From positions 1-59,903 of the forward strand of contig JABANN010000156.1 in the NCBI GenBank assembly GCA_013115125.1: a stretch of 59,903 nt of DNA. The letters run 5' to 3'. Below, one piece after another: positions 6,723 to 46,110 of the stretch. The position numbers and the translations under genes are program-made. Position 1 is the first letter of the stretch; every line of letters starts with the position of its first letter. The notes below the pieces were generated by a model. The model did not search any database, had not been told where the DNA came from, and was given only the letters and a program-made list of their open reading frames with translations. This DNA is from Perkinsus olseni. Its lineage: Eukaryota.

Positions 6723-6803
6723 GACTACTACCAAACGGCGGCAGAGAACGAATTGAAGACGACCAGGAGCAAGGAAAAACTAACACAGAGAGATCACCGA
6801 GCT

Positions 6804-12610: not shown

Positions 12611-12632
12611 TTTGGCAAGTGGTCCTTGGGAA

Positions 12633-12650
12633 CTAAAAATGATAATGACA
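12633..12650 (-). promoter_or_regulatory. Candidate 3' splice / spliced-leader acceptor upstream of eEF2
   Basis: Minus strand reads TGTCATTATCATTTTTAG|TTCCCAAGG, 22 nt before the ATG. SL trans-splicing is known in perkinsids, but use of this site is inferred. Confidence 0.4.
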
Positions 12651-15035: not shown

Positions 15036-15596
15036 CTATGCCTTGACGTTTCTGTGAGTGCTGTTTCTCCCTTCCGTGGTGCTCTAGTTAGTCGACATGG
15101 ATCGGACATGCTCCGGCTGCCGTATACGAATGGGAGGGAAAGGCATTCGCGTCTTTACCATACAGAACTGCCTAGTCGCACGAATCACATCACATAGGTC
15201 GAGCCGGAAACTCTACGGCTGGATGACTCGATCGTCAGGTAGCGTGAAAGACGTAAAGTTGCTTTTGGAGAATTCTTTTCTGATAGAGAAATCGAGTGAT
15301 AACTTGTGAACCTTTCCTCGGGCGTGTGGTGTAGGGGTATCACGTCTGCTTCGCATGCAGAAGGCCTCGGGATCAATTCCCGGCACGTCCATTCTTGATG
15401 ATCGTTTCACGAAGTACTGGGGTGATATCACAACTTGAGCCACGGCTCGTTTTGTGAAAAGATCACTCACCTTGGCCGACGCGAGAGGTAGTGGCCTTGC
15501 TCGCGCTAGCTTGACTGTACTCTTATGCACTAGTGACAACTCGGAACGAGGAGCTTCCACAGTGAATGTAACAAAACAGTGTAACGATCATTACGG

Positions 15597-24327: not shown

Positions 24328-24542
24328 TCTCGTCGTCAAGTTGGACACTCGGTTGAGCGTGATAGTAACTATACAAGCCAACTGAAGAGATACACCCCTA
24401 CGCTATGATGTAACACAATACACCTTTGGAGTGGTACCATGACAAAAAGCAATGTTTGGCGCGGCAGCTGTATGATAGACAGTACGTCCCTACTGGTCGG
24501 ACCAGTGTGGTCCGTGGACTGTATGACCAAGCCAGCTACTAC

Positions 24543-24863
24543 TCATGCAAATGCTGAGGCTGCGACTAAGGTTCTCAGGTCGATACCAAGGGACTCGGCC
24601 AACTCTTTAAAGGCTAATAAAAATGAATGCACTTTGTCGGTGATAAAGGCGATGAGGTAGCCGACGGTGGCACCGAATACGCCCACTAAGACGCACCGTG
24701 AGAGGGTTACCAGGGCCAAGTTGTCACCCCAGACTGCCGTGGTAAGCATGAGATAAATAATCCTCGGGTTTTGGAGGACGTAGTAGAAAGTAGCGCCCAC
24801 AGGGCGTAGCCAGAAGATGATGTAAGGCAGCGGCATGAGGCCTGACAGCTCATGTTCGGCCAT
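24543..24863 (-). CDS. Small hydrophobic protein (106 aa), paralogue A
   Basis: ATG-started intronless ORF with clear similarity to 24994-25293 (SGLxPLxYxxFWLRP; ESxGI...ASxFA*). Confidence 0.75.
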   Translation of the reverse strand: MAEHELSGLMPLPYIIFWLRPVGATFYYVLQNPRIIYLMLTTAVWGDNLALVTLSRCVLVGVFGATVGYLIAFITDKVHSFLLAFKELAESLGIDLRTLVAASAFA

Positions 24864-24993
24864 TGTTTATAAAGTATAGCTGCTCCTTAACTCAAGTCCT
24901 CTATGCTGACAACTCGACTACCGGTGGCTATCCACACAGACAACAGGGATGCATGATTAACACACGACAAAGGGCGTTTAAACAAGTAGGGAT

Positions 24994-25293
24994 TTAGGCG
25001 AAGGTTGAAGCTCGAGCAAGGGCCGCATAGGTGATACCGATAGACTCAATGGTGCGATGGAATGATATTAATGACTCGTGAATGAGTAGAGTTAGTAGGC
25101 CCATCACAGATCCCATCAGGCCTCCAACAGCCGCACCAGCCGAAGTAAGGATGATGAAGTTTATAGATCCACCGGCATCCACTAGGTCCACAGCAGAGGG
25201 TTGACTTAGCGTGTAAAGAGCTATTTGGGCCATGGGACGGAGCCAGAACACCCCGTAAACGAGGGGGAGTAAACCAGAGCCCTTTAGACTCAT
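24994..25293 (-). CDS. Small hydrophobic protein (99 aa), paralogue B
   Basis: Paralogous to 24543-24863; protein-level conservation despite DNA divergence supports coding status. Confidence 0.75.
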   Translation of the reverse strand: MSLKGSGLLPLVYGVFWLRPMAQIALYTLSQPSAVDLVDAGGSINFIILTSAGAAVGGLMGSVMGLLTLLIHESLISFHRTIESIGITYAALARASTFA

Positions 25294-25341
25294 TAAGGGC
25301 GATCAAGGCGATCGGCGGCAGCCATGCGCGAGTCAGGGCGA

Positions 25342-25369
25342 GCGCGATCTCATATACAAACGCGCACGC
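25342..25369 (+). promoter_or_regulatory. Candidate promoter motif at a divergent strand switch
   Basis: GCGC-GATCTCATAT-ACAAAC-GCGCACGC; near-copy on the opposite strand at 43557-43586. Confidence 0.5.
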
Positions 25370-25600
25370 CCAGAAAATCCAGTTTCTCCCCGCCTTCCCT
25401 TATTCGACGACGGGATGGGCGGCCAATATGAATGATTGAGTGTTTCTCGTCCGTGGGGGTCGGAAGTAGTCTAATCTCGATGATAAGGGATGGGTGATGA
25501 GGGAAGTCTAATTGGTTCATAACAAGGGGGGGGCGTGCAGTGCACGCCGTAACCTGGATGACTATGCATTAGTATCAGCAGTTGTATAGTAGTAGTGGAG

Positions 25601-27268
25601 ATGTCTACTGCCGCTAGCTCCATTCCTGACGACCTCTTCAAGAAGGCCAAGACCGGCAAGGGACGGAGGATACTGGCCGAGAGGGCATCGAAGATTCAAG
25701 TACATCATCACCCCAGGGTGTCCTTGTGTATCATCAGCACTGTTGTTGTCTTTAGGAGAATGACAAGACCGTTATGCTGCTCCGAGGGCCTCAGGCTGGA
25801 CAAGATGTCAACGCGCTGTTGAAGGATCTGTAGGCTGCAGCAGTGGGGATGAGGGGCTGGGAGTGGGTGTACTTAGATACGACATGCTCAAGCCGAATGC
25901 TGTCAATCTTAGAAGAAACGAGAGCGTTCAACCTTTCGAAGATCCTGGTAGTATCTAGGGTTGCACCTGGGAAGATGCAGATTAGGTCAAGACTGGCGTG
26001 AAAAAAAGTGGATATTCTAGGCACTCTGGAATTCCTCGCCAAGAAGAACGATGCCAGTCTGTTCATATTCGGATCGAAGTAGGAATAGGTCATCTAAATA
26101 TTTACAGTAGTAACTCCTTCTCACAGGACTAAGAAACGGCCGTTCCGGTTGGCTGTTGGTCGTACCTTCGACCACCAGCTCCTGGACATGGAGGAGATGC
26201 ACGTTTACAACTACGTAACACGGCCTTCTACTTCTGCTGTGCTGCCATGACCCATCGTGATCACCATCCACAGGTGCCGGCTAGTCAGTTCAAGGCAGAG
26301 GCCCCTCGACTGGGTAGTAAGCCTCTGGTCATCTTCCAAGGGGATGGCTTCGGCAGCGTGCCCGATCTTCAGCATGCTAGGTCGCTCTTGCTGGACGTAT
26401 TCAGAGGCTCACAAGTAGGCTCCCTTCCTTCGCGCAGTCCCTAGATCGATCCTTGAATCAGGCAAAGGCAGTGGCTTTGGATGGCCTAGATCATGTCGTG
26501 GTCTTCACTGCCGTTGAGGACCCCGAAGAGCCTGGCGCTCATCTTATATGCTTCAGGTAGGCCAATTATCGTTCTCATCAAGTTGGTCCATACCACCTTT
26601 GCATGACACACCATTGATACCATCATACCACACACCATTGGCGAACATCCCTTCAAATCACCGGTCGCCTCGGAAACAGACATCATTGTTGAACTCGCAG
26701 GCATTACCGCATGACGTTCAAGCGTACTGGGACCAAGCTGCCCCACGTGGAGCTCTCCGAGCTTGGACCGAGGTTCGATCTCAAGACGGATAGGGACAAG
26801 GCTGCTGACCATGAGAAGTGGAAGTAGGGGTTCAACCTCGAGGGAACGAGCTTTGAGAGGGATATGCGTGGTTGTAGGTACGCCACTAGGCTGCCTACGC
26901 AGACGTCTACTACCGAGTACAATAAGGAGAAGGAGCGTCCCAATAAGTCCAAGAACATCACGACGGACATCATGGGACAACGTGATGCTACTTGAAGGGA
27001 CGGATAGGGGGAAACGATATGTGTTCAGGTCGTGGTCGTATCCATCTCGAGAGTCAGAACTTCAATAAGCTTTATACTCCTCATCATAAGACATTCCTCA
27101 AGAGGAAGGAGAAATTCGCTGAAACTGCCGCCGATGAGGAAGGAGGAGGTCATACGGGGTCCACCGGGGAGAGCCATCAACGGCTCTTAACACCGTTATA
27201 CTCGGTGTGAGCTCTTATTCGGTCGTGCTTCAGATGGTCCCTCTCCTAAGAAGGCCAAGTCCACTTAA
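25601..27268 (+). CDS. RPF2: Ribosome production factor 2 (Brix domain)
   Basis: Spliced: KAKTGKGRRILAERASKIQENDK...LEFLAKKNDASLFIFGS...KKRP...GRTFDHQLLDM...LPHVELSELGPRFDL...KNITTDIMG...GRIHL. Confidence 0.93.
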
Positions 27269-27473
27269 GTGGCCGGAGCAATCATTGCTACCCCGTCCCT
27301 ACGTACTACTATCTACGAACGTTGCCGTTTCTCTCTCTGAGGCGGAAGTGTTGTGCAAGTTGTAGTATAATAATCGTCATCGAAAAAGTCTGCAGAGGTC
27401 GTTCAATAGGCATCATTGCAGCACTTCCCATCGTTAAGCCTCAGAGCAGAGCCCTACTTCTCTTGTTGTGGTG

Positions 27474-29136
27474 ATGTCTGCTACTCCAGCTTCCTTCGAG
27501 GTGCCTCCGAGTTCGAGAGGGATTAAAGTCTATTATAGAGGGGAGAAGGAACTGTCTCAAGGGGAACCGTAAGTACCCCAACTAGGGTGAGGCTTTTCCC
27601 ACCACAGCGGCCTATCGGCCTTCACGTGTTTTCGTAACGGGTGGCGCGAATTTGATTGGGGTGATTGCATAAAGCTGGCATCATGCTTTTGCTGTTATCA
27701 TCATAGTGCAACTGCAGACTGTGCCCCCTGTGTCCTCAGTTTCACTCTGAAGTACACCGAATGGTGTCTGGACGAGGCCACAGGCGTGTGTGTATGGTGA
27801 GTTCGGCATGGGATACCCCGGCCATCGATGCCTCCTCGTAGTTTTCTATCAAACCCGAAGAAGCTGAACCCCTTCACCTTCAACCTGCTCTGGGAGGTCC
27901 TCTTCTGTGTAGAGCATGCTGAGCGGGACCCCAGAGTTAAAGTGGTCATCTGGGCCGGTCGTGGTAAAGCTCTCCTCCTCGATACCGTCCCTTCCCGGTA
28001 TCACTGATCACCAGGTCGCTGCTTCTCCGGCGGTGCCGACTTCACGTCCCTCTTTGCTATCGACATCGACCCTGAGATCATAGCTGGCTACAGACGAGTT
28101 GGTAAAGGCATGGCTAGGGACATGGACGTAGCCTTACAGGTGACGCATTTCGGAGTAGAATTCTCCCCCAGGATCGCTGAACCCCCTCAGGGTGTCACAC
28201 AGCGTTTGCTGGCCTTCAAGAAGCTATCAATCTCAGCAGTCCATGGGCCATGCATTGGTGGCGGGGCCAACTTCGCACTACTACTGCACGACTTCGTTTT
28301 CATCTCTAAGAGTGCGAAATTCCGGTACTCCGTCTAATCGGCGCTCACGCCCTCCTTGGGATCGGACGAACTGTTAGTTACCCCTTCGCCGAGCTTGGCA
28401 TCCCTGCGGAAGTTGGCTCCTCCTTCCTACTGCCCTACAACGTTGGCCCACAGCGTGCCAAGGAGCTCCTCATGCTCGGGGAGTTCTTTGGAGCAGAGAA
28501 GGCTTTTCATTTGGGTGTGGCCCCTTCCTGCCAGTTTTTGTACTCGTCAAATCTCGACGATGTTCTCAGGCCTCGCACATCAGATCGTAGAGAAGGATGA
28601 AGACCTTCTCCCCACTGCCATCGCTTTTGCCGCGACTAAGTTGGCCCATAGGAAGTGATGCCCCCCGTGAAAGGAGACTGCCCCTCGCTGTGGGGCATCA
28701 GCGCTGCTTATCAGATACATGGACTCATATGCTTACACCAAGGCTTTGGTTAACGGTAATTTGCTTGCTATTATGAAAGCCCACAGATCATTGGATAAAG
28801 AGGTGATAGCACCGCGTGCTAGGTGGTGCTATCTTCATAATTCTCTCGCGCAACGCTTGTGGTGGTCCTAGGACTATGCCTAACGGAATAGCGTGGGCCG
28901 CCCAATACCGTCACTCGCCTTCAAAACAGACCTGATCCCGCTTGAATTAACTCCACTGCCTTTGGGATATCGCTTTTCGCGGGTATCATTATGTGTAGGA
29001 CGGTTTGTTCTTCCTCTATTAGAACGAAGCCTTCGAGGTAGCGTTGAAGTCCGAGGGGTTCATGGCAGCTATGGCGGCCTTCAAGGCCAAGATTGGAGGG
29101 AAGAAGAAGCAAGGAGCCCAAAAGTCCAAGTTGTGA
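27474..29136 (+). CDS. Enoyl-CoA hydratase/isomerase (crotonase) family protein with C-terminal PTS1
   Basis: NPKKLNPFT...GRCFSGGADF...AVHGPCIGGGANFAL...PFAELGIPAEVGSSFLLP...AKELLMLGE; last exon ends GAQKSKL*. Confidence 0.9.
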
Positions 29137-29276
29137 ATCGGATCAGCTTTCCTATTCTGAAAGTCCCCATGTGCTAGTTTTTAATGAGTTTATCTGAAGA
29201 TTTCATCAGCTTCGTGTTGTAGAAGTGGGGCCGGGCTCAAGACTGGTGTAGGACAGGCCTCGGGTCCAGTACCAGC

Positions 29277-30616
29277 ATGGGACGTCTATCCAAAGACAAG
29301 CGGGACATATACTATCGGCTGGCTAAGGAGGAGGGCTATCGGGCAAGAAGTGCGTATAAACTCCTACAAGTCGATGAGCAGTTTCATGTACTACTCGGGT
29401 CTGTCCCACGGGGTTTAGGTTAGAAACCTGAGCTTTGGAGTGGTACTGCTACTGTTGCCGTGCGTGATTTGTGTGTTTCAGATATTGGGTGATGACTTGG
29501 AACGAGTTGTGGACTTATGTGCTGCCCCGGGGAGTTGGAGTCAGGTAGTACGAAGAGGGCGCGATTGAGGGGGTATTGGGGACTGTCGGAAGGTCCTGAG
29601 TAAGAAGCTGTGCGAGAATCTCAAAGGCTCCGAGAAGAAAAAGCCATTGATCGTCTCTGTTGATCTTCAAGAGATGGCTCCCATACCAGACGTTACCTGC
29701 ATCCAAGGGGATATCACCTCTGAGAAGACTGTGAAGGAGGTAGTCCAGCGGCCAACACAGAATGCCACCCGGCCACACGGTTCCTCGCTGGTCAGGTGCT
29801 CGACTGCTTCGGAGGACAGTTGTCTGACTTGGTGGTGTGTGATGGCGCACCTGATGTCACGGGAATGCACGACATGGATGAGTAAAGGGACTGACGGGCA
29901 GTGTTGGGAGCCGGTGTTACCTGCCTTCGTCGTGAAGATACGTACAGTTCCAGCTGCTACTGGCCGCCCTCAACATCACCACTCTCTTACTGAAGCCGGG
30001 CGGAAGTTTCGTAGCGAAAGTCTTCCGTGGAGAGAATGTTGATCTACTCTACGCTAAGATGTCCGTATCACCCGTTACCGCAGTCCAAGCCATCCCTTGC
30101 CGCCTCAGGTACGTCTTCTTCGAGTGTGTGTGGGTGGCCAAGCCTCGAAGCAGCCGTAACAGTAGTGTGGAGTCTTTCATAATCTGTAGGCGGTGTGAAG
30201 CCTCTTACCTCCATGAGGGGATGCCTTCGGCTGTAGGTAAAAACTTTCGGTTGCCCAAAGGCTACACGCCCCGACTGTACAGTGCACACGAATTCAAGAC
30301 GGTCATTGAAGGCTGTGGTGAGTTGCACGAGCGCAGCTTCCGTAGAGGAGACGGTATCTTTGCAGAAGCCACGCAGGACGAGAAGCGACTTGTCCCATTT
30401 GTTGCATGCGGCGACCTGAGTGGCTATGATGCTGATATGAACTACAGCGCTCCTACAGGTGGGAACGGTGGGGCCCCTCCACCTTCGAAGCTGTTGTCGT
30501 TGTTAGATTCTAGCGAGCCCCTGGCACCGGTACAACCTCCCATTAATCCGGCCTATGCTGATGCTATCAGGGAGAAGAAAGAGTCCCAGAATAAGAAGAG
30601 GGCGAAATTGACGTGA
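29277..30616 (+). CDS. TRM7: tRNA (C32/G34-2'-O)-methyltransferase (FTSJ1)
   Basis: [86 protein letters not shown]. Confidence 0.96.
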
Positions 30617-31044
30617 ACCACAGCAACAACTGTCTGTTACCAAACTACCTCGCCCGTGCTGTGTTGAATTGTTGTTACACTAGCTTCGCCACTCTCTTGT
30701 CATCGCTATGTTATCGGCCGAAAAAGGATTTTATTTGCAGCTATTGGATGAGCTAAGGAGATGAAGTACTGAAAATAGTGTCAGAGGCACTCGGAGCTTG
30801 GAGCTCTTGAAACACATGGCCGGATCGACTCGGGGTTGTGAATGAAACAGTACGCTAGTCGAACGGTGCGTACTGTCGGACTCAAAGTTGAAGAGTTTCC
30901 ATAGCCGGAGGGAAGGTGTCTAGTGCGATATCACATAGTAGGGGCCACTATGGCCCGCACCACGAAGAAAGCATGGGGTCGTCGTTGTCCTATGATAATG
31001 GCGATGGACGCGTACCCTGCCCTGGTTAGATCACCTCTCCCGCC

Positions 31045-32985
31045 ATGACAGACTCACGAACCTCATCAAGGCATAGTGAGCGGAGTGCCGAGCCAGCGTC
31101 GACTCCCCACCCAATGGAAGCTGCAATCCGGGCGCCGGATGCCCTCGAGGAGGCGTTCGAGCTCCTCAGGCAGCAGCTCCGTAATGAGCGTCAATGTAAT
31201 CTCCTCTGCATCCAGCCCCCCCCCCTCATCAGATGATAGAGAACGTGAAGTCTTGCACCTCCAGAGCAAAGTCACAGCCTTGGAGGCCGCGTCGTAAGAT
31301 ACCATGCTCCCAGTGCCGACCTTCTCTTTCGTGAGTAAGGCAATACTCAGGCGTGTACGCATGGACGGGCCTCTCGACATACAAGCAGTCACTCAACAGG
31401 AGGAGGAGGAGGAGGGATGTCGAGAAGAAGCAGCCGACAGTATAGAACTCAAACGAGGCGATGGGAGACTGCCAGTTGGCGCGGGTGACTTATCGACACG
31501 AGACACCACTCGAAGCTTCTCCGCTACTCGCCGGGCATCACCGCGGCTCGTAGTTGGTCCGTCACACAAGGCCACGAGAGCCCTCAGGTAGCTGTTTCGT
31601 AGCTATCCACAAACACCTAATTGACATCTTCCCGCAGACACTATGAGAGGGTGTACGGCACGCTGAAGCCAACACGACGGGCCTCAGCATCGGCCAGACA
31701 AAGCCCGGTTTCGACAAGGGAGACCAGCAGCGTTGAAGCATCCGTAAGGACACTCAATCGAACTCCGCAGCAGTGAAGAACTCCCAGGTACCCAGCCGCT
31801 CCTCGCCGCAACCGAGCTCCGTAGGGGAGGCCCCAGATCTCGAGGTTAAGAATCAGAAACTTCAGGAAGTAGCAGGTTCTCTATGGGCTCAACTTGTGAC
31901 TAGTCGACCCTTCCACGGCCACCAGCCAGCGAAGGCTCTACCGACGGTGATTCGACTAGTTCCCTCCGTAGGCAGTTTGGAATCTCCGTCAAGAGCTCGC
32001 CGAGATGAGAGACCAGTACAAAGCTCTCTTGAGAGATTCCAGAGAGAATGCATCATGGCGGCGTGAAAAGAGCCTTCAAAAGGCGTAATTCCGCCAGCAC
32101 CCGGTCGTAGCCCTTCCAGTCGGCCTTCGGGCAGGTGTCGACAGATACGCGTGCTGAACGAACAAGTGGGCATGCTCTACACAGAGATGACGCTGATGCA
32201 GGCACGGGGAGATAATTGCTGCTCTCCCGCTGAGGATATCTTCGTCGTTGAGGCGCTTCTTTCAGGCGTCAGAATTATACTCAGAGTCGGTTAATGGAGA
32301 GCGCTCACTGAATGATGTGACACTGATAACAACTGGGCACGAAGCAACGGTTCACGTTCCTCTGTAGAGTAATGTTGTGCAACTGGAGAATAAGCGTCTC
32401 AAACACGAGTTGGAGTGCGCCAATGGTCGGATACGGGAACTGCTGCAGGAGGTGGAGACACTAGCTCAGAGCCGAGACCGAGCATTCGAAGAGATTCAAC
32501 GCCTGTGAGGAGTTTCTGGAAGCTCTCCTCTCTTCCATGTATCAGTGTGGCATGACGAGCACAGAATTCTCTCCCTCAGGAGGATGACGGCCTTCGATAG
32601 AGCGCTGCGAAGAAGAGCCACTGGGTGAGCTACAAGAAGTTGTCATTCTAAGATTCGTCATTGATGCTCACTGACAGGGAATTAATTCCCGTAACGCCCA
32701 CACGACCGAGAGCAGAGCCGGAGAAGAAACGGCGTCCGGTACTCGTTTCGCGGCTGGATAGAGTGTTTATGTACATCTTGCCTTCAGGGCCGCCGCCTCG
32801 CCGCCTCGAGTATAACGTGAATTCTCTGGATGTTATCTTCGCACGCTTTTGGGTTGCGTTGGTTTCGAGAAGGGTGCTCGTTACTCGTTATGGTGGGGGC
32901 AATGAGTTGGAGGTTTTTTTTGACCCTTTATATGCTCCGGGAAAACGCAGCCTCCAGTTTGCCGAGCTCAACCAGGGGCGCGTGA
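31045..32985 (+). CDS. Multi-exon coiled-coil hypothetical protein
   Basis: Heptad-rich fragments (LEEAFELLRQQL; EVLHLQSKVTALEAA; LEVKNQKLQE) flanked by splice-like sites. Structure not fully resolved. Confidence 0.45.
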
Positions 32986-33619
32986 ATGCGGGATTGTTCG
33001 TCTTGTCTTGTTCACTGGAACACATACGGCGCTAAACTGGCTACGTGTTTTGTTTGCGTGAGTCTTGTCGGGGCTGTCGGAAGAAATTTGATGCATTACA
33101 CGATACATTGCCCTGGTTAAGCTCAGCACTAATTTACAAAAACTACACATGCTCGGCCCGTCAGCGTTGCTGCGTGTGCCATCTCACTTGGACGACATAC
33201 AGTAGGAGCATCACCACGACTAACCCGCTCACCATCACTCAGCATGTTGCGTTGACCACCGGTCGTAGTGGCATCAGCAAACTAAATCCGACGCTAGGCG
33301 CGACACCTGATGCCCCCGCCGTATGCTTCGAATACCGTGCATACCAGCAATGGTAACAACGGATGCCTCTTCGTGCGCTGGATTCACCGTAGCAACCGAC
33401 GAACGTCGGCTACCCCCTCGAAGGGTTCGTATCGCCCCAGTTTAAGTTGCGTGTTGGCAATCGGCTATAGTATCATCACGTGACTACGTCTACACTTCTG
33501 CGCAACACTCGGATCTGAATCCTTCGAGAAAGTTCAGATGACATGGCCCAAGAATAGTTAATAACAACAGCAGCTCGGATGTTCACTGCCCTGCGGCGAA
33601 CGGCAGGTTGCTCGTCCCT

Positions 33620-36399
33620 TCAACCACCAGTTGCTCCCTGATGACTGGACTTGTCCTCAGTGGTTTCTTGATTAACATCAAGTATCTTATCCGGACTGCC
33701 TGGTCTGCTGTATCCGTCGCCTCGACACGCAGCCTCCCATGATGGTGTCGATGTAGCCGTGAACCCTCCGGCGTAGCGCGGTCCCCCCTCAGCAGCCTCA
33801 GGAGGCCCAAGACCGGGCAGGAATATCTCAGTTTTGGTTCCACGAGCTTTCGAAAAGCCCTCGTTCAGCTCTGGGAACTTCGCAACAAGCTTCTTCGCCA
33901 CTCGGTAATTCCTCCCAACCAACGAGTTACCCGAACTGCCCTGTCCATTGCTGCTGCTGCTGTCGCTGCCAGCTGCATTCTTATTGTTCTTGAGAATGCA
34001 GTGTATGGAGGGCTTGAGGGCCTTGACGAGCTCCCCGAACTCTGGTAGGCCACGATTCTTCATAACTATGAGCAGCTTCTGCAAGACGTAGTTGCCATAA
34101 GTATCCCAAAGGAGCTCCTCAAGCCGCCTGTCGGACAGGAGATCCTTGGCAAAGCTTCGGGCAAACGCTGAAGGGCCGCGAACGAGGAGAAGCTCGACAC
34201 AGTTGGAGGAGTATTTATCTTTCGATAGAGTGACTATCGAGGTGGAGAGGATTCTGGAGATCTCGGCGAGGGCGTTGCAACCTTGAGTGCTGCCAGAGAG
34301 GGCCGGGCTCTGAAGGATATGCTGTACTGCATAGTTGCCATATTGATGCCGCGCCATAACGACAAAATCCACCACAAATATCTGAGGAAAGGTATCCTCG
34401 CCTGGTGGCGAGGTCGAGGCCTTACTTCCAGTAGCCTCGAAGTGTGGCGGCCGACAATGACAGGATGCTCGGTCCACCCAGACCCATTGGGATAGTGCTG
34501 TTGCATGTCGGGTATCATCTCAACCTAGCAGCACGGGCAGGGAAGGGCAGACTGCGTTCACTCCGTCCCTCACTCGATCGACTGCCGGGCATCTTTCGAT
34601 AACCTTCTTGGCGGTAATGACGCCCCACTGTGAGCAGCTTATCTCGATGAACCGATCCAGAAGGCACTCCAGCAGCCAGCCACTTTGAGCCATCACGTCT
34701 AGTATCTGACATCACTGCAACCTTCCTGCATCTTGCAAGGGTCGACCCTAGATACCCACCTACCTTGAGGAGAACATAACAGCCATTAGCATCAACAGCC
34801 AGCTCCCTACAGCAGACTCGGATGGCACCGAGTAGAGGCAGCTGATTGGAGCCGCCGTAGCGGACGTTGGCCTCACTAATTAGTTTCTGTACAGCACGAG
34901 TTCCATGGGGGTGTATGCATAGATCAAACAAAGCACGGCCCTTGAGGATTTGGGTGTTGAGCAGCTGCTCAAAGGTGGCCATGTCGCTGACCTCGAGGAC
35001 AGCCTGGGAGACGTAGTTACCAATGGCATGGAACGAGAGCGGTAAGAATAAGGGCACGAGTCGATCCACCACTCGAGAGACCTGAGCACGACCATGATGA
35101 TGATGGAGGCCGTTGAGGTATCCTACCTGAGAGGCATTGCGGAACTCAGCCCTGAGAGCATCCTGCAGGTAGAGGGAGGTGACGTGGTCCTCAGCGTAAA
35201 CTCGGACCTCCTCATCAGTCAAGGCGAGGAAGTCATCGAAGGGGAACTGTCCAGCGTTCTTGACAGACAGTCTGTCCAGAGATTCCCTGTTGGGACTAGC
35301 TCCAAGAGAGGGGGCAGGGTAATCCGCATGGCCTGATGGTAGGGAAGGTAGACCCAAGCGAGGGGCAGGAGGATGATGATGATGGTCGTAGCGGACGTTA
35401 TTAGAGGGCAGGGCAGGGTAGAGGGCAGTGGCTGGTGGTGTCTCGTAGACCAGAGGGTTCATCACAGGGGAGAGAGTAGGGTCTCCTCCTCCTACTGCGG
35501 TAGAGGGATGCTGCTGCGGAGGCATGGTGTAGTGAGGGTGGAGGGTAGTGCTGCCTCCGACCGCCGCTGTGGCGGAGTAGGACATAGTTGGTGATAACAC
35601 AGGGGACGGAGGAGATGACAACGACCAGGGGTCATAGCAGGTGGGGTCTGATGGAGGAGGGGAAGCGTAGGGCATGTAGGACCTGAAAAATGGGCGCCCA
35701 GTCGCCAGTGACGCTTGGCCCGACGCTCACCCAGGTGCCCAGGGCTGAGCGTAGAAATACTCGTCAGCTTGGTCCGAGTACTCGGGGGAGATACTCGACC
35801 CTGGTGCTGCTGCTGCTGCTGTGACAGGGGGAGGGACCCCATGGTCATAGGGCGCAGGCATGCTGCCGACTGGTCCTGGATGTCTTTGGATAGGTGCCGC
35901 CATCTCCACTAGGCCTGATAGAGAGAGTGAGGGGGAGTAGGAGGGGTGTACACTTACGCATGTCGCCCACACTGGGGGAGGGGTTCATGCAGCTGCTGCT
36001 ACTGCTACCTCCTACTCCACTACTACCGAGCCACGGCTGCGAGGGGCCACGGTCACACCACTGGTTGGGGGGATACTCGAACTGCCCCCCAGGTAGAGGC
36101 CCGCTCCCTGGTGGGCTCATCGTTGGAAGTGGAGGAGGATGGGGAGGCATCATCAGCTGTGTTTCATAGTCAGTACTCCCTACCATGCCCTGTGGGGCCG
36201 CTATCTGTAGCAGAGGCACGAACACTGAGGACTCGAGTAGGCACAGCTGGGTACTCACCCCGGGCGGAGAGGAAGGTGGAGGGGGTGGAGGAGGAGGCAT
36301 CATCCACCTAGAGTCAGTTGGGGGGCCGTAGAGTGGAGCACTAGTAGTAGCAGTAGTAGTAGCGGAGGACAGGAAGCAGTCGCGCGGCGAATTCGCCAT
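33620..36399 (-). CDS. Pumilio/PUF RNA-binding protein with Pro-rich N-terminus
   Basis: PUF repeats HAIGNYVSQ, HPHGTRAVQKLI, DANGCYVLLK, HQYGNYAVQHIL, DKYSSNCVE, DTYGNYVLQKLL. Confidence 0.9.
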
Positions 36400-36721
36400 G
36401 GATGAGCAGGGATGATAGAGCCGTGTCCAACACGGAGATGGAGAGGCGGGCAGTGGAAAGATATACCTACCACTCGATAACAATGACGACACGCAACCCG
36501 ACGCCGACGACTAGGACGGTGATGTCCTACGGACAACATCATCCTAGTCGTCATCGTCCGTGGCCTAAGCTGTCTTATAGATAGCTTCATACTGCTGTAT
36601 GCTAGCAATAATATTATATACCAGAGACGGGTAGACGCTAATTGACCATGGCTGCAACACAACCGCTGAGGATATGATGTTGGAAAGTTATGGTAAGACT
36701 GTTACGATGGAGGTGTTGTCA

Positions 36722-37197
36722 TCAATCTTTGCCTTCATCAAAATCAGCCGGTTTATCTGGACCGAACATACACAAATGGCCCAGGCCTCGAGCCTCCATG
36801 TCCTCCACTAAGCAGGCCCGATACTCCTCGAAGTACTCATCACACGATAGGGCGAGGTCCCCTCGGAGGAAGGCATGCCGGTACCTACAACCAAGATGAG
36901 GATGATGCTCGAGGAGTGGTACTAGGAGGGTACCAGTTGTTGAAGCATTGGTCGTATCGGTCCTTGAGATGCTTGCAAGATTGAATGGCCTGTTTATGGG
37001 CATCTGCCACTTGCTTACCGTCCTGGAGGATATCACTACAGTACCCAACAGCGGCCCGGAAGGGTTACATTAGGATCGACCTGCTCCCTCGGTGCCGTCG
37101 CTGCAGCTGCTTCTTTACTGTCAGCGGCGTTCTTGTCCTCGTTCTCATTCCCAACATGAGCCTCCTCCTTCTTGTGACCTCCCCATAACCACCCCAT
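36722..37197 (-). CDS. MDM35: Mdm35/TRIAP1 mitochondrial intermembrane-space twin-Cys protein
   Basis: Spliced SCKHLKDRYDQCFNNW|YRHAFLRGDLALSCDEYFEEYRACL matches the UPF0203/Mdm35 pattern. Confidence 0.85.
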
Positions 37198-37370
37198 TAT
37201 TGGTATGCCAAAGTCAACTACCGACAAGGAGAGGAGAAGGCCAACACCCAAAGCATCTCGCCCCAGGAAGAGAAGCATTGAGCTCAAGTCGATGTAAGAA
37301 AGGAGAAGTAGGAGGAGGAGACACGGCAAATATGATAATGATGAAAAGCTAATCGCTGATGTAAAAAACG

Positions 37371-38606
37371 TTAGGCCGGTGGTGATACTGGTCGGTCTGG
37401 GTAAGAGAGGGCGGTAGCATATTTGACACTACGAGTGAAGTGCTGAGCCTCTTCTCGACACCGGCCTACCACTCCTCGGAGCCGAGCCTGCTGGGTACCC
37501 AACGTACACCTCTGCTGGGAGACAGGATGGTTAGCAACAGCAGCTGATGATGATGATGCCCGCCTTTGTCTTATCAAGGCTGCTATATGATGGCCAATCA
37601 TCAGTGCTGACTCCAATAGGATGAGGAGCTCCTCGACCTCCTCCGACCCGAAGTCCTCCAGATCGCCTATCGCCCGAGTGAGCTCAGCCAGAGCCTTCGC
37701 ATAAGACTCTTCGTCACCATCATCGACACTAAGACTCCCTCCCAAACTAGAAACACGCTCGGCTACAGCTACTGCCACGTGGACACTTCCTAGCAGCTTT
37801 CGGCGAGTGCCAACAGAGTCGGGGGTGTCGGGTGCTGGGGTCGAACCCGAGTCATCCTGAGGATCACGAAGCCACCGCCAGACGTTGGATAGCCAGGAAG
37901 CATCCTGAGCACTCTCATCACTGGCACTGGCTAGAATCGCGCTGCTACTTGAGGCACCGAAACCAGGCGATACCAGCGGGCTGTCCGAGTGTTCAGGGAC
38001 CGTGGGTATGGGTACGGAGGGGAGCTCCTCAGCGCGGGGAGTAGGGGTACTAGTGCCTCTACGGACGAGACCTTTGTCCTTCTCCCTGCCGTCAATGACG
38101 ATGAGGCGGCGAGGCGAGCGATGATCACTAGATGCCGAGGACAGACTGCTGCTGCCTCCTATAGAGTCACGAGATCTCGAGAATACTCCGGGCATCTCCA
38201 TCCGGCATTCTGCAGGGGGTGGCCGCTGCTGAGGGGACCCAGCAGAGAGGCTGTCCTGGACGACGACCTGGCCTGGCGGGTATGCATCCCGTGGGGTGCT
38301 CACGGCCTGCTGGGCAAGGGAGAATATCTTGTTACCGAAGCCTGCCAGGTACTCAGCACTAGCGAGAGCCGCCGCTTCGATGCCTGAGGAGAGGTCTTCT
38401 CCAAGGTCGTCAGCTACATCCCCCCAGAGGGGAGGCGGAGTGTTCACCAGGTACTCCACCGGCATGGCTCCCATTCCGGCCGCACCTTGAGATCGGCTCC
38501 CGTAGGAAGTAGAAGGACTACATTGCGAAGATCCACTGATTTCTGCCGCTATCGGCCTGTGGTAGGCCAGGTTCTCCTCGCTGTGGTCATAAGAGTGATC
38601 AGTGCC

Positions 38607-38647
<41 letters not shown>

Positions 38648-38860
38648 GAACGTTCACCGCGGTGGAAGGCTGCGCCACGGAGCTGCTTTCCTGTGAGACT
38701 GCCGCGACCTGCCTGCTCTTACACGGAAACGTCGATGATGATGATGATGCTAACGATGAACGAGATGAGGTGGAGGGGGAACGCGAGGTCAATTGACGAG
38801 AAGGCTGCGGTGAATGGGATAGCCCTCCTGGTTGAGAGGAACCTCCAACGTTGGCCACAG

Positions 38861-38905
<45 letters not shown>

Positions 38906-40354
38906 CAGTGGTTTCACTCGCTACAGCACACGAGCCTCCAGCTGCAGGTAGATCCTCCTCTTGAGGTACCGAGGAATACTCGTCATCGACCTCAGCTCCC
39001 GTGATGGCCAGGTGCTCCATACCCTCCGCGGATGCTGAATACTCATCACCCGGACAGGGCAGGATGGGTTGCTCTGTTCTCCCCGCATCCTCGGATACCC
39101 CGGCCGTATCATCGCTATGGGCATCATCATCATCATCATCAGCAGCAGCCCCCTGCCATACTACCCTATCCATGTCGTTCAAGGCATCACCCTCCGGTCC
39201 ACTGGTGTCTACCAATTCCGCGACATCCTGTGGGGCAGCTAAGTCGATAAGGTCCTCCTCCTCATAGCTGCTCCCTATGCTACCCCCACCACCAGAGGTA
39301 TTGGCCTCCCCTGAGCCGGTCGCTGTAGTGCTACCGTTGCCTCCTCTACTGAGCTTGGCGAACTCCTTCCGTATCATCGGTGATATGGCACTGTCATTGT
39401 TGATGAAGGTCGGGGTGCCGAGCAAGGGGCATTGAGCATACCACCCACCAGTCTCCAGACAAAGGCCCGTAAGGAGCAGCTCCGGCATGCCCATATCGTT
39501 AGCGGACGGCTGGACCCCGAAGACCGCCACATGGACGGGTATGGCGCGGACCACACAGCGACTAGCGAAGCTAATGAGAGCATCCTCAGGGAAGGAGGAC
39601 AGGGACTCCACATGCAGGAAGAGCAGCAGGCCGAGGTCGCCTGGCTGAGGGAAGATACTGTCGAGGTCGAACGGGCAGCGGGCCGATTCAGTACTGTGAG
39701 GGGAGGCCTCTACTGAGTCGATAAGCTGTTGGATATTTACCAAGCCCAACTTAGGATACTTCAGCAGGCCCTCAGGAGGCGAGTTTAACCGCACTTCGAG
39801 GCTGGCAGACACCAGCATGGACTCGGGCAGATGTAGGGGAAGTGTGGTAAGGAACTCACGAAAGGATGTGGATAGGATGGTGCCTGGCAAGTTCACGCTG
39901 CCCTGACAGGGGCCGCAAGCTGTACTACCGTATTTCGCCCGAATCTCCAAAGCTAGATCATCATTACAGTTAAGGGTGCCCATTCCTCCATTGGCAGTGA
40001 GCTTAGCCGTCCTCTCCCTGACCAGCTCGGACAGCCGATGGCGACGCTCCTGTTTCGAGAGAACGGAGAGCCGCAGCCAAGTGGAACCTCGAAGAGGCGC
40101 CGTGGTAGACAGATGAAACTTCGGTGATGACTATTACCACTCTCACACTCCCTGAGGACCTGTTCCCTTATCTCTGCCTCGAGCTCTACTCTCGTGCAGA
40201 GGGGAGCCCGCAGCCTCGGATTGCCACTATCAACATACAGCAACAGCCGGTCACCGCCTCCTCTACTGGCAGGCGGCGTGCCGGTGGCAGCGGCCAACAT
40301 CGGAGCAACCCGAACAATCAACTGAGAAGCCATTTGTACCCCCTGCTGAGCCAC
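37371..40354 (-). CDS. Large low-complexity hypothetical protein with possible degenerate vWA-like N-terminal region
   Basis: 870-aa ORF plus an upstream 133-aa ORF, probably joined by one intron. PVHVAVFG...LLLTGLCLETGGWY resembles the end of a vWA fold. Confidence 0.65.
38608..38646. repeat. (GCA)13, poly-Ala on the coding strand
   Basis: Read directly. Confidence 0.95.
38862..38903. repeat. (GCT)14, poly-Ser on the coding strand
   Basis: Read directly. Confidence 0.95.
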
Positions 40355-40502
40355 TTCATCCCTAGTGACAATACCAACGAAATGAGGCCCTTATGCTGAT
40401 GAAACTATCCGTAATGAGAGCAGCAGCGAGCGCTGGCATAAGCCAGCATACAACTCTACTAAAGGCCGAAACCTTGGTCCAACCGGGCAGCTCCACCGAC
40501 CA

Positions 40503-41833
40503 CTACGGCTGCAGCAGACGCTCAGTATGCGGCGATCGGGCGCTCCTGCTCAAGTGGGCCCTTGGGGACACCTTCCTCTCCGCTGGGGACGCTACCAATG
40601 GTGCTGATAGGGGTACCAGGCTTGGCGAGACCTGAAGAGATAATAGTAAAGGCAATGTACTGCTGCTCTTACTCTAGCCTTGGTGTCCAATCCGAAGGGC
40701 AGGCGGACCGCTTGGTCGTAGACCAGCTGACCGTATACCAGTAGTACGAAGCCGAGAGCCTGCACCCAGGAGTACTTAGTAAGGGGCTCCCCTAAACCGT
40801 AACCGGGAGCAGCATAGTACCTACAACTCTAATGAGGACAGAGAAGCCATCACTTTACTCATTACATCAGTACTGACACTAGCCAGATTACTATGGTCCT
40901 TGAGGCGTCCAAAAAAGTATGATGTATAGCCGAGGCCTCGGCAGTGACCATGACGCCGCATATGTTGAAAACAAGGATGGAGATGATGAACCCCAGTGTG
41001 CAGGTGAGAAGCAGAGGAGAGTTGGACAACATAACGAAGGAGTCCTCAGTATTCTCCATCACCTTGCCCGTGTCCGATCCAGGTAGGTTCTGCAGGGCTG
41101 GTACGAAGACTAGGCACATGAGTAGAGTGCCCCAGAAGCCCTCCAAGCCCACCAACGCCATCGGAGCTACGTCGTTGGGCGGCTTGAGTAGGAACTCCTC
41201 CAAGACGTATTGGGCAGCACACACCACTTGGCCGGCTACTATGATGAATATCCCTAGGAGCATCAATGGTAGGGTCACCACCTGTGTCTGCTGTTCACGC
41301 GATGATAGGGAGGATACCCCCACCAAAACGAGGGCAATAAGACAGAGGCAGACTCCTACCCAGTGATGGCGGTACATTTTACGGCCGAGGAAAATGACAG
41401 AGAAAAGGGCCGAGAATAGTAGTATACTTCCCTTGAGCATTTGGTATACTGATACTGGGGTGTAGACTAGGCCAATAGCCTGCAGGGACGACCCCAACAG
41501 ATCGAACACTGATGGGATACATACAGTAAACCACATACGGAGGCCAATGCTGCTAGCTGCTGCTGCTGCTTCAGGTGCTGCTGCTTCAGGTGCTGGAGCA
41601 TTGGCCGAGGCGCTGCTACTGCTCTTGCCACTCCGACGACGCAAACAGTAGTGCAGTGGTAGCGCTAGCAGCATGGCAAGGAACATGACCAGGCTCATGA
41701 ACCAAGGCTTCTGGAAGTAATGAAGCGTACCGTCTACTCCCATACCAGTACTTTGGAACATCAACTTCTCTATTATAGAGTTGGCGGACCCAGCCAATAG
41801 CCCGATACCAAATATGCATGAGAAGGTCACCAT
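40503..41833 (-). CDS. SLC35F6: SLC35F6-like DMT / nucleotide-sugar transporter, paralogue 1
   Basis: FQKPWFMSLVMFLAM, IPSVFDLLGSSL, SVYQMLKGSILLFSALFS, LVGLEGFWG, ASAIHHTFLDASRTIVIW. Start uncertain. Confidence 0.85.
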
Positions 41834-42147
41834 GGACGAAGATGGAAAAAAGATATGACTTGGCATGGCCGCAGTGAGACAAACTGCAGAACACAACACT
41901 CTGGGAGTGTGTACGAAAGGTAGTGCGGTAAGCACTATAAGAATAAAATGAAGCATATGCCAGCAGGTGGCTAGACAGCACTACATAGACCCACAAAGCC
42001 CATGCAGCAGCAGCCACCATGCCAAGGTTCTAGGAGGGGGGTCACATAGAGGAGTGGACGACGATTAGATAAATCTGACTAGTATCAGCCGTGGGATGGT
42101 ACATACAGTAATCAGAAGGTGGACCAAGACCACAGCAGACGGCGGGA

Positions 42148-43328
42148 TTATGGCCGACTGCAAGGATGCTCCTCGAGATCCTCGCTAACTCCTTGGTCCT
42201 TACGACGCTCTACTTCAGGCGATGAGCTGAAGCATGCTGAGCGGAATGGAATGCTGAGAACATTATCATAGATGAGTTGACCATATACAAGTACCGTGAA
42301 GCCAAACGCCTGTATAATAGAGTACCAAGTGAGGGGTTCTCCCAGGTGATGATCACTGCTCGTGTAGTACCTGATACAGGGGGAAATCTGCGTGAAATGA
42401 GCTGCCTCCCAGCCTACATTATGATGGACAACACCCAAACAGATAGAGTCCTTGTAACCTCTAAGAATGATCGATGGACTGCCGACGACTGTGCTGTCAC
42501 CAATGCAGCACTGAGCTTGTATATGAAAAAGGCTGTGAAGAGTCCAACAGCCAAACTCATAAGGACACTAGATTCCCGCAGCATCATCAGTGTATCCGAA
42601 GTATTTTCTAGAACACCTCCAACGTCATAGCCTGGTACGTGCTGTAACAACGGTAGGGCGAATGACAACATCACTAAAGATCCCCAGAAGCCCTCTACTC
42701 CAACCATCAGCAATGGAGGTAGAGTGTGTGGCGGTTTAAGGAGATACTCTTCTACAACGAACTGTGCACCTCGCATGAACTGAGCAGCCAGCACAAGGCC
42801 AAGGCCGAGAGCTATGTCCGCTGACCCAGCCCTACCGGGGGTCCTCTTGGAGAGGACATGGGCGATAGCGACAGGGATAAGACCGAATACACAGATACAC
42901 AGACCGACCCAATTGCTGTCTGTGAATCTTTTACGCAAGAAAATGCGACGAAAGAGCGCCGAAAAGATGAGGACGCTTCCTTTGAGGATTTGAAAAATCG
43001 AAGCTGGGATGTAGACTAAGGCTATGTTCTGTAGCGAAGAGCCAGTGAGTTCGCAAAGGGCGGGGATGGCTACAACTAAGAGAATCTTCAACTTGACTGA
43101 TTGCAGGTTTTTACGGTATCCTTGGAAACATAGGGAGACCAAGTGAACGAAAGCGGACGTGAACATAGCCAACATTGTGACGGTAGTGACGAAACCAGGC
43201 TTGACGAAGAGATGGGGGGCCCAGCCATCGAGACCGATGGAGGAAGACTGATACATGGTCTTCATGATGGTGTAGGTCCCTGTACCAGATAATACACCGA
43301 CTATAAAGTAGAGTAGATAACGAGACAT
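42148..43328 (-). CDS. SLC35F6: SLC35F6-like transporter, paralogue 2
   Basis: FVKPGFVT, IPALCELTGSSL, SIFQILKGSVLIFSALF, MVGVEGFWG, SSAVHRSFLEVTRTLSVW; intron at the same M|YY position as paralogue 1. Confidence 0.85.
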
Positions 43329-43556
43329 ACTGACAACAGGAGGATACCGACAAAAGACCTGACAAGGGACGGGGCCATATGCGGACATCCAATCTCACGA
43401 AGCGAAGCAGCGGGTGCTGCTGGTCGTACTACTGCAGTACAGCGGGTCTCCAGTCCAGGCCCATGTGATGACGAACCAGGGAGGGAACTTCTCTCAGGGA
43501 AGGGTCACTGCCAACAAGGAGCAGCCGCCGTCACGTGCACGCATGCGCAAGCAGTA

Positions 43557-43586
43557 GCGCGCGCCCTTAAATATGAGATCCTGCGC
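43557..43586 (-). promoter_or_regulatory. Candidate promoter motif at a divergent strand switch
   Basis: Minus strand reads GCGCAG-GATCTCATAT-TTAAGG-GCGCGCGC; near-copy of 25342-25369. Confidence 0.5.
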
Positions 43587-43678
43587 AGACGGTCGCGCGC
43601 AAGAAGTGTGAGAGGACTGCCGGGCAGGTGTCATCGTTTGCAGTTATTGAGGGTGCAACCCCACCCTATTTTATTATT

Positions 43679-46110
43679 ATGAGCGGTCCTGATGATGCCC
43701 CTACTGATGGACGGGGATGGGATGCCCTTTGGAAGAGTGGCCAAGGCTTGGCTGCGGCGCTACAGAGTCAGTCACAGGAGGTCGCCGCTAAGATACAGGT
43801 CCAAGCTCATGACCTGGCTCATCAGGTACTACTATCACCATCCATCTCGCTTTCCTCGTTCTTACTATCGTACAGGCTTGTCCGAGTTGGCCCTTCGGTT
43901 AGGTATCCTCGACGGAGTGGGGAGGTAGAGTGACCACTGTAGTGCAGCAGGTGGTACGGGCATCACTAGTGGTGGTGACTAAGCTGTGGTATGGTGACAG
44001 GCCGCTGAAACCCTACATCGCGACTATCGCAAGGCTGCGGCAGCCGCTTTGCCTACAGAGAAGCCGCCCAAAAGGAATGCTGTTATCAAGCTGGCTCCTC
44101 GGGTATTCATCATACCCTTCCCTGAGAAGAACAGGGCCTCCTCGATTGCTGCGGCCCTTCCCGACAACTGCAAGATTTTTAACATGTCGGAACGGAAGTA
44201 GTATCTTGAGAAATCTTAGGTTGAAGCTGGCGAATCATACACTTTTAGATACGACCCTTCAGAGATGTTCCCCAGTCTATCAATCTCGGTGGTCGACATA
44301 GTCTTCCCCGGGCTGCCGTATCCTTCTCTCGTCAAAACTGCTGAGATTTGTCTTCAAGTGGAGGAGTGGCTTAACGGTGATCCTACCCGCTGTGTTGCAG
44401 TAGTACAGTTGGGCCGTTCCATTCACGACGCTAACTCCTCTACCTGCTGTAGTTACACTGCATCCCAAGCGGCCTGCCTACCCGTACAGCAGTGGTCTCA
44501 GCATGCCTCCTCTTCTGGCTCTACCCAGCTGAATACAGTCATCCCTTGGATGCGGTCCCACGGGCGTGCAAGTGTTTGCCCCTCAAGGAAGATGATTTGT
44601 TACCGAGTCAGAGACGGTAATACACTGGGAACGGCTTTATCGTGATATACTACCTCTCCGACTTGTGCATGCATCGGTCCTCGCGGACGTTTCGATAACC
44701 TACCACGCCTGCAGGTACCTCTCTTACTTCTACCGCTGCATCTGCAGTCGTCGTAGTAGTAGTGGCAGTAGCGATGACAGCTCTGATTCTACCGTGGAGG
44801 GAAACTACCTAACACCCCTACCAGTTAGCATGAAGATCGTCCAGGTCATTGTCAAGGCTAATGATGATTGTGATAGTGGTAGTAATCGGGCTGTACTCTT
44901 GTTGATTTCTCGACGATGATGATGCAGATAGCACACCGCTGGCTAACCCTACATCCAAGGTTGGGTGGAGGCCTTACTTGGACCTATGGCAACAGGGACG
45001 AAAGCTCTACTCAAGTTGGGAAGCCATTGGGGACGACTCGGCACCCGCTAAGAAGTCGAGAGCGGATGAACCTGTCCTCACCTTTACGATACCTAATGGC
45101 GGTATACCGATCAGCGAGGATGTAGTAGCGGGGAGAGTAAGGGAAGGCATTGCTGTCTACAGGTCATCCTGCGACTGCGGACGTATCCCGGGCCTCATAC
45201 GGTGTTCCGCGTCCCTTTGCCGTGCCCCGGGGTGCTCTATCACGACCAAACCAAGCGTATACTGCTCACCCGAGCTGACTTGGACGGCGGCGTCCTGTCG
45301 GAATTCGTGGACGATGTGGAAGTGGTCTTTTCATTTGACGGTGATACTATTACTACTGCAGTGGGGAGGCAAGTGGGCAGCTTATCGAGTTTTCAGATAC
45401 GCAAGTTGATGAGGATAATCCCGCGATACGGAACGCCCGTCAAGTGCTGGTCGACTGCAGAGCTAAGTTTAAGCGGCATTACACTGAGGACATCACTAAA
45501 GGAGGTCGTAGAAGCATTAGTAGCAGTAGAAGTAGTAAAGGGAACGGAGGCAGCAGGTCGAGTCGAAAAAAAGAGGTGAGGGTGAGACTTTCCATGGGAT
45601 AATCTGAGGATGGGCATTTCAGGGCAAGTCATCGGGCGACACTCCCAAGCGGAGGACCAAAAGAAGCGAGAAGCTTCCTAAAGTCACCGAGGCAGTGAAT
45701 TCTACGACGGCTATTCAGAAGGAGGAGAAGGCTGCTGGGTTTGTCACGACTGGTACTGTCCCCTCTTCTAATACTGGTGTGAAGGAGATATCAATCCCAA
45801 TAGAAGCCGCGGTGGGTGATGCTGAGCTAGGACTGGATGATCTGTAATACTAGCGGGGCTCTTGAGTCAGCATCGGCATAGTGGCTAGTGGTAGGTATGG
45901 CTTGACAGCTGTAGACGATGTATGGGGTGATGCTGCCATACAGCAGAATGGTGACTCACTTGGAGAGGAGACTATCGTTTTACCGTCTAAGGAGGAAGAG
46001 GATCGGCGAAGCGATCCATCATCTATCCCTTCTTTATTCGGCAAGAAAGATGCCGGATGACACTGGATGGGATACTGTCAGTATCTTCATCATCATCAAC
46101 GTCATCATAA
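43679..46110 (+). CDS. PTEN/tensin-like phosphatase-fold plus C2 domain protein
   Basis: KIFNMSER|YD, PYPSLVKTAEICLQVEEWLNGDPTRCVAVLHC, LLPSQRR|YLSYF, PYLDLWQQGRKLYSS. 3' end uncertain (46060 or 46110). Confidence 0.8.

Follow-up and report, generated by a model that had tools for sequence, protein, structure and literature searches.

A 45-nt sequence element shared by two divergent intergenic gaps of Perkinsus: a candidate promoter module

Two divergent intergenic gaps in a 59.9-kb stretch of Perkinsus DNA (contig JABANN010000156.1, positions 1 to 59,903; hereafter the window) carry copies of one composite sequence element, here called site A and site B after the gaps A and B in which they lie. 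The two copies can be aligned without a gap over 45 nucleotides (nt), of which 31/45 are identical, and the likeness consists of three blocks at fixed spacing, TGCGCG-N15-GATCTCATAT-NNAANN-GCGCRCGC. This likeness is modestly to moderately above chance, each copy lies between expressed genes that point away from each other, and in gap B a mapped spliced-leader acceptor is only 56 nt away. The explanation that we favour, tentatively and with rather more doubt than confidence, is that the element is a real, local, protein-binding promoter module common to two unrelated divergent gene pairs. As matters stand this is a lead from two copies, a hypothesis worth testing genome-wide but short of a result.

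The shared element and its setting

The element was noticed in a reading made from the letters alone (the sequence-only reading), which described a ~28-bp motif at 25342-25369 (+) and 43586-43557 (-) with an identical 10-mer, a 6-nt spacer and the word GCGCRCGC in common. Both strings read as claimed and all three shared features are present at both sites. The likeness is real, but it is longer than had been described, with the additional block TGCGCG lying 15 nt ahead of the 10-mer in both sites:

Site A, first-described 28-mer: 25342-25369, plus strand, GCGCGATCTCATATACAAACGCGCACGC
Site B, first-described 30-mer: 43586-43557, minus strand, GCGCAGGATCTCATATTTAAGGGCGCGCGC
Site A, extended 45-nt element: 25325..25369, plus strand, TGCGCG-N15-GATCTCATAT-ACAAAC-GCGCACGC
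Site B, extended 45-nt element: 43557..43601, minus strand, TGCGCG-N15-GATCTCATAT-TTAAGG-GCGCGCGC

A gapped alignment of A with B gave no extension past 45 nt and no longer flanking homology, and the sequences that follow the motifs in the two gaps are unalike. The census of copies covered the 59.9-kb window, as distinct from the whole genome. Within it the 10-mer GATCTCATAT is rare, with exactly two copies, at 25346-25355 (+) and 43580-43571 (-), and none with a single mismatch, as the sequence-only reading had supposed; TCTCATAT likewise occurs twice, both times at sites A and B. GCGCRCGC stands 6 nt after the 10-mer at both sites and is found at three places in all (7123, 25362 and 43557), the latter two being those in register with it. 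Of the 11 occurrences of TGCGCG, three fall inside gaps A and B.

The core of the element is AT-rich and reads CATATWYAA on one strand, ATATGAGATC on the opposite one. GCGC boxes clamp this core on both sides, and when read in the direction of the nearer gene the element is GCGYGCGC-N6-ATATGAGATC. The element is a quasi-palindrome: site A read backwards agrees at 14/19 core positions. Although the window as a whole has about half the expected number of GCGC (156 observed, 310 expected), gaps A and B are two of its three densest GCGC/CGCG clusters, which, counted over 120 nt, are at 43541 (11, the window maximum), 59181 (6) and 25321 (6). The observed/expected ratio of CpG is 1.0-1.3 in the gaps as against 0.77 window-wide.

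Both copies had been placed in gaps between diverging genes whose products are unrelated, and on each point the description holds. From ATG to ATG the gaps measure 367 and 290 nt, all four flanking genes are covered by spliced or expressed contigs, the near genes of A and B have no protein similarity to each other, and the far genes are unrelated. The RNA evidence consists of contigs of three runs (X7, X8 and X19), which, being assemblies, carry no transcript starts, ends or strand; splice acceptors and poly(A) sites were read for a few genes, among the loose ends listed. The features of the two gaps are as follows.

Divergent gap A, ATG to ATG: 25234..25600, no strand, 367 nt; minus ATG 25233 and plus ATG 25601, from the six-frame reading and the scores of open reading frames (ORFs)
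Near gene of A, small, expressed: 24546..25233, minus strand; ORFs 24546-24866 and 24997-25302
Far gene of A, Brix-domain: 25601..27327, plus strand; Pfam Brix match, 10 GT..AG introns, spliced joints in X7, X8 and X19
Divergent gap B, ATG to ATG: minus ATG 43388 or 43328, plus ATG 43679, no strand, 290 nt
Gap B, acceptor to acceptor: 43361..43641, no strand; plus side from the loose end at 43642, minus side putative
Near gene of B, trans-spliced, expressed: 43679..44400 (3' end approximate), plus strand; six-frame reading and RNA contigs
Far gene of B, EamA/nucleotide-sugar-transporter-like: 41912..43360, minus strand; Pfam and RNA contigs, poly(A) site 41912
Spliced-leader acceptor AG of the plus gene of B: 43642..43643, plus strand; 56 nt beyond the edge of motif B, 36 nt ahead of ATG 43679
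RNA contig inside gap B, run X8 only: ~43430..43570 (approximate), strand undefined; depth 126.4 at 43451 and 43456, 0 at 43425 and 43375

In gap B, a loose end of an X19 contig, CTTGGCTCA, stands before 43642 and is the 3' part of the Perkinsus spliced leader, given in a passage of PMC9399869 as the 22-nt ACCGTAGCCATCTTGGCTCAAG. This places the trans-splice site of the plus gene at 43642/3, and the primary transcript of this gene must therefore start upstream, in the stretch that bears the motif. On the plus strand of site B, GCGCGCC lies directly before CTTAAATATG, 62 nt upstream of the mapped acceptor, and from ATATGAGATC to the acceptor AG the distance is also 62 nt. The minus-strand gene probably has its own acceptor at 43360/59, where an X19 contig ends at 43360 with 5 unplaced letters and the sequence allows an overlap with the leader end. 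In favour of a promoter module, each flanking gene would then have its acceptor downstream of the element, the mapped one on the plus side and the probable one on the minus side. A weak hint in the same direction is the RNA contig of run X8 inside gap B, which by depth arithmetic appears to end at the motif.

Gaps A and B are alike in geometry. In B the motif is 197 nt away from the mature 5' end of the far gene, and in A the distance is about 209 nt. In gap A, arithmetic on contig depths would put the 5' end of the mature Brix mRNA near 25572-25582, with a predicted acceptor at about 25578; no contig of X7, X8 or X19 lies over 25525 in this gap. Nearer to site A there is a candidate acceptor AG at 25283/2, unverified, 59 nt from the motif and 63 nt after ATATGAGATC, and the near gene that it would serve has a contig depth of 377.9 (X7) and 83.3 (X8) across 24500-25163. 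No Pfam family was found in the near gene of either site.

If the element is indeed such a module, it would be a composite of about 45 nt, with a TATA-like AT-rich core and CpG-rich GCGC flanks, that sits in the promoter gap and recruits either a sequence-specific factor or the basal machinery. Primary transcripts would start beside it, and their short outrons would be removed by trans-splicing. The likeness of the two sequences, its rarity, the divergent setting and the acceptor at 56 nt are observed; protein binding, initiation beside the motif and the choice of the gene that is served are inferred. The module would be local to the two gene pairs, or perhaps to some subset of promoters, rather than a universal start signal of gene blocks.

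Gap B has one further peculiarity, an inverted repeat with arms at 43492-43521 and 44114-44162, ~610 nt apart (14 nt perfectly complementary within 25-nt arms at 76%), which brackets motif B together with the plus gene's trans-splice acceptor and first exon.

The likeness against chance and the search for further copies

Six scoring schemes were tried on the A-B likeness, and a single one yields the strongest p-value. With ungapped +1/-1 scoring, which suits an alignment of ~70% identity, A and B score 17, a value reached by 0/201 (A) and 1/158 (B) other comparison windows, by 1/1500 whole-sequence dinucleotide shuffles and by 0/1500 shuffles within 40-nt blocks. For this pre-specified pair a fair p is about 0.003-0.05, depending on the scheme. 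When 181 windows of 330 nt were compared all against all, 78/16290 pairs reached 17, and at that rate about one such pair is to be expected somewhere among the ~190 pairs of gene-upstream gaps. The top-scoring of the 78, not all of which were classified, fall at a few recurring coordinates that resemble low-complexity coding repeats or paralogous transporter genes.

A number of observations weigh against a promoter module. The 10-mer taken alone is ordinary, since an equally long exact run is shared by 40/201 comparison windows for A and by 40/158 for B. When gaps are allowed and scoring is +2/-3, A and B score 23, a value that 59/1500 whole-sequence and 75/1500 block-wise shuffles attain, as do 14/201 (A) and 16/158 (B) other comparison windows, and gap A has a better local match elsewhere in the window (29 as opposed to 23). 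CATGCGC, which the sequence-only reading took as common to both regions, is indeed present in both gaps (two of its four places in the window), but it is out of register, preceding the motif in A and following it in B. A cruciform or hairpin had to be rejected as the common feature because only site A beats shuffles. That site is a near-perfect GC-rich inverted repeat (25336-25370, plus strand) whose arms GGGCGAGCGCG and CGCGCACGCCC (25336-25346 and 25360-25370) enclose a 13-14-nt AT-rich loop, and its 37-mer folds as single-stranded DNA at z -5.4, with 0/200 shuffles as good; the hairpin of site B is no better than shuffles (z -0.9 and +0.4). The window also holds no degenerate family of the 10-mer, there being 34 matches to GATCTCATAT with <=2 mismatches where 51.8 are expected. 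The best third match to the 31 consensus positions scores 19-20 (shuffle mean 19.6, maximum 21), and eight other gene-upstream gaps give at most 16/31 and 12/19. Finally, the motif has two copies only and was derived from these same two.

For the core, the best further match is 14/19 (shuffle mean 13.7, maximum 15); the top further matches to the consensus are sites A and B overlapping themselves; and neither the likely third divergent gap (5861-7290) nor the region upstream of the EF2 gene, both of them among the eight other gaps, has the motif. Recurrence at many promoters, as would mark a core promoter, is not seen in the window, which has two copies only, and a general block-start element is not supported beyond its two defining copies. 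The GCGCRCGC at 7123, which lies in this possible third divergent gap and has CATATCGATC upstream, was considered and rejected, its 12/19 at the core being the chance level. The word ATGAG, found 62 nt before an acceptor at 29250 and 65 nt before that of gap B, was dropped as well, being post hoc and absent before the two probable minus-strand acceptors. A scan of a metagenome collection for the 24-nt pattern GATCTCATATNNAANNGCGCRCGC gave 0 matches. A search with EF2 found no relatives at the Perkinsus level beyond the NCBI record. Our literature search found no promoter-motif or start-site work in Perkinsus, and GATCTCATAT is in print only in papers on other organisms, which to judge by their titles and abstracts are apparently unrelated.

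Gene order, trans-splicing and competing explanations

To the left of A, minus-strand genes run up to ATG 25233. Between A and B come plus-strand genes (Brix with ATG 25601, enoyl-CoA hydratase, FtsJ methyltransferase) and then minus-strand genes to ~43360 (PUF, a small UPF0203 gene, a 919-aa ORF and two EamA/nucleotide-sugar-transporter-like paralogues). To the right of B, from ATG 43679, the genes are again on the plus strand and include a Y-family polymerase, a tRNA m1G methyltransferase, an RRM protein and a WD40 protein. The co-oriented runs that diverge at the two sites are about 3-6 genes each. Minus and plus blocks thus do diverge at A and B, as had been claimed, but the first minus block is not pure. 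It is interrupted by a plus gene at ~7288-7989 with a DUF6827 match (7726-7989, plus strand, E 9e-14), which adds two switches that lack the motif, one divergent and one convergent, at about 5.9-9 kb, and it also holds two plus-strand tRNA genes, tRNA-Asn (13041-13114) and tRNA-Ala (15320-15391). Both tRNA genes, of which only the Ala gene is listed at the Rfam gathering threshold, lie in an ORF-poor 4-kb region upstream of EF2 (12700-16800).

The contigs of X7, X8 and X19 carry spliced forms of the genes, which are therefore transcribed. A second loose end with the leader tail, CTTGGCTCA, stands before 29250 (X19). An acceptor of the second transporter gene probably lies at 41860/59, where an X19 contig stops at 41862 with 5 unplaced letters, and the transporter gene upstream of it has its poly(A) site at 41912, as judged by a poly-T loose end before that position. 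The tandem gap between the two (41859-41912, minus strand) leaves about 52 nt from poly(A) site to probable acceptor, and the 919-aa and UPF0203 genes almost touch at about 37190. Such tiny tandem gaps are compatible with co-transcription, or else with promoters within the upstream genes; trans-splicing taken together with the ~52-nt tandem gap makes upstream starts and co-transcription of neighbours plausible. Two fragments in the window recall the leader itself. The last 8 nt of the leader, GGCTCAAG, are genomic at 29233-29240 (+), 10 nt upstream of the 29250 acceptor, and ACGTAGCCATCTCGGCCAAG at 2493-2516 (+) resembles the 22-nt leader, with an identical run of 11 nt followed by one change and one missing base. 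The recycling of mRNA in dinoflagellates is said to leave relic leaders of the kind at 29233-29240. The copy at 2493-2516, after which there is no GT donor, may be a relic leader from a retro-copied mRNA or may be due to chance.

With respect to the origin of the A-B likeness, simple coincidence stays close behind a promoter module because there are two copies only and the p-value depends on the scheme. Two CpG-rich gaps could share a 10-mer, with self-complementary GCGC runs mimicking a longer motif around it, and we regard this as quite possible. Exact 10-mers are commonly shared, the gapped score is equalled in some shuffles and windows, the 78 pairs show that a score of 17 is not unique, no third copy exists in the window, and the strongest p-value is one of six. 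It is harder to reconcile with coincidence that block-wise shuffles, which preserve the GC-rich patches, never reach 17 in 1500 attempts, that the match falls on the one pair of prior interest, and that GCGCRCGC, present at three places in 59.9 kb, twice has the same 6-nt offset from the 10-mer. The sequence-only reading had drawn a bolder conclusion: a sequence-defined bidirectional initiation element at divergent strand switches would drive multi-gene arrays that are then resolved by trans-splicing. Both of the two largest divergent switches do carry the motif (2/2), trans-splicing occurs at internal genes (the acceptor at 29250 and the probable one at 41860), the ~52-nt and near-zero tandem gaps leave little room for internal promoters, and a quasi-palindrome (14/19) would suit two-way use. 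Nevertheless, we think array promoters unlikely: the third switch, between the minus ORF 5282-5860 and the DUF6827 plus gene, offers nothing better than 16/31, the EF2 upstream region beside the tRNA genes has no motif, the blocks are short (about 3-6 genes), and PMC7789003 reports no evidence of polycistronic mRNA for the related blocks of dinoflagellates.

Common descent, with A and B as present-day remnants, devoid of function, of a single dispersed or mobile sequence or of a patch copied between the two gaps, seems to us distinctly improbable. It is true that three blocks at fixed spacing over 45 nt look more like homology than like the site of a single factor. Moreover, the window contains four 22-mers (1730-1751, 18597-18618, 24492-24513 and 43481-43502) that follow a transposon-excision scar pattern, X[1-7]+revcomp(X)+X[2-8], two exactly, one with 1 mismatch and one with 2; that at 43481-43502 lies in gap B, 55 nt from the motif, and the inverted repeat described above marks gap B as rearranged DNA. 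Yet two copies are all there are, with no homology past 45 nt, no terminal inverted repeat or target duplication surrounds either, the metagenome scan was empty and the motif does not fit the scar pattern. As an excision scar, repeat or transposon relic the motif was rejected on the grounds of pattern misfit, copy number and lack of terminal repeats. The least probable of the explanations, and in our opinion a very improbable one, is that each gap encodes an unannotated small non-polyadenylated RNA with the motif as its promoter. A weak hint in this direction is the RNA contig of gap B, seen in X8 only and without a counterpart in X7 or X19: depth arithmetic, the contig itself being unlisted, makes it ~123 nt long with an end at ~43548-43573, next to motif B. 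However, Rfam gives 0 matches in gap A at E up to 1 and a single spurious one in gap B (E 0.11, 15 bits against a gathering threshold of 34), the 141-nt stretches beside the motifs fold no better than shuffles on either strand (z -0.2 to +0.8), and downstream of the motifs the two gaps share no likeness, gap A having no contig over 25525.

Comparison with known systems and the origin of the DNA

The closest functional analogue of the two gaps may be the divergent strand-switch regions at which transcription starts in trypanosomatids. There, as here, co-oriented runs diverge from a short gap, mRNAs are trans-spliced to a leader, and the distance from poly(A) site to acceptor is very short; in the window, leader trans-splicing was found coupled with upstream polyadenylation for a few genes. 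The Perkinsus blocks differ in being only a few genes long, with genes full of cis-introns, and polycistrony is here only a candidate. Furthermore, the Perkinsus candidate is a GC-clamped, AT-cored word, whereas a passage of PMC13532274 reports trypanosomatid start regions without a consensus except for a GT-rich motif in T. brucei.

[quoted passage not shown] Dinoflagellate genomes are described, in passages on Symbiodinium microadriaticum Hi-C (PMC8110479) and on Amoebophrya (PMC7789003), as alternating co-oriented blocks transcribed from divergent 'bidirectional loci'. The passages of these two papers that treat the divergent sites name no sequence motif, and PMC8110479 nowhere uses the word 'promoter'. 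The blocks of dinoflagellates are much longer than those of Perkinsus.

Considered as promoters, the gaps recall two better-known designs. Animal CpG-rich bidirectional promoters serve head-to-head gene pairs less than 1 kb apart and combine CpG enrichment with GC-rich palindromic boxes. Gaps A and B likewise have head-to-head expressed genes <1 kb apart and a local CpG enrichment, and gap B includes the box CGCATGCGC, but the Perkinsus element differs in having an AT-rich core at its centre; we know of no factors homologous to the animal ones in alveolates. A TATA box with its B recognition element (BRE) also has an AT-rich core directly flanked by G/C-rich boxes, and lies roughly at -30 from the start site. 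In contrast, neither Perkinsus core is a canonical TATAAA, and site A mismatches the upstream BRE consensus. To our knowledge, transcription initiation in Perkinsozoa and dinoflagellates is essentially unknown. If the array-promoter explanation were true after all, this would be the first time that a start element for RNA polymerase II had been defined in the Perkinsozoa-dinoflagellate lineage. With a defined element at divergent gaps one could test directly whether gene blocks are units of transcription, and the design of expression vectors for Perkinsus, a parasite of shellfish, would benefit as well.

The origin of the DNA was confirmed, on the strength of its sequence, as Perkinsus at the genus level. 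The 59.9 kb are eukaryotic nuclear DNA whose genes have short GT..AG introns, and the single-exon EF2 gene (10094-12667, minus strand) has 98% identity to EF2 of Perkinsus marinus ATCC 50983, the next matches being dinoflagellate-like at <=79% identity. A DNA run, X17, represents a genome that is ~6% divergent. One of its contigs joins 31413 to 36345 with 23 other letters between them, which suggests a structural difference of ~4.9 kb from the window, spanning the weakly expressed 31-33 kb stretch and the PUF gene.

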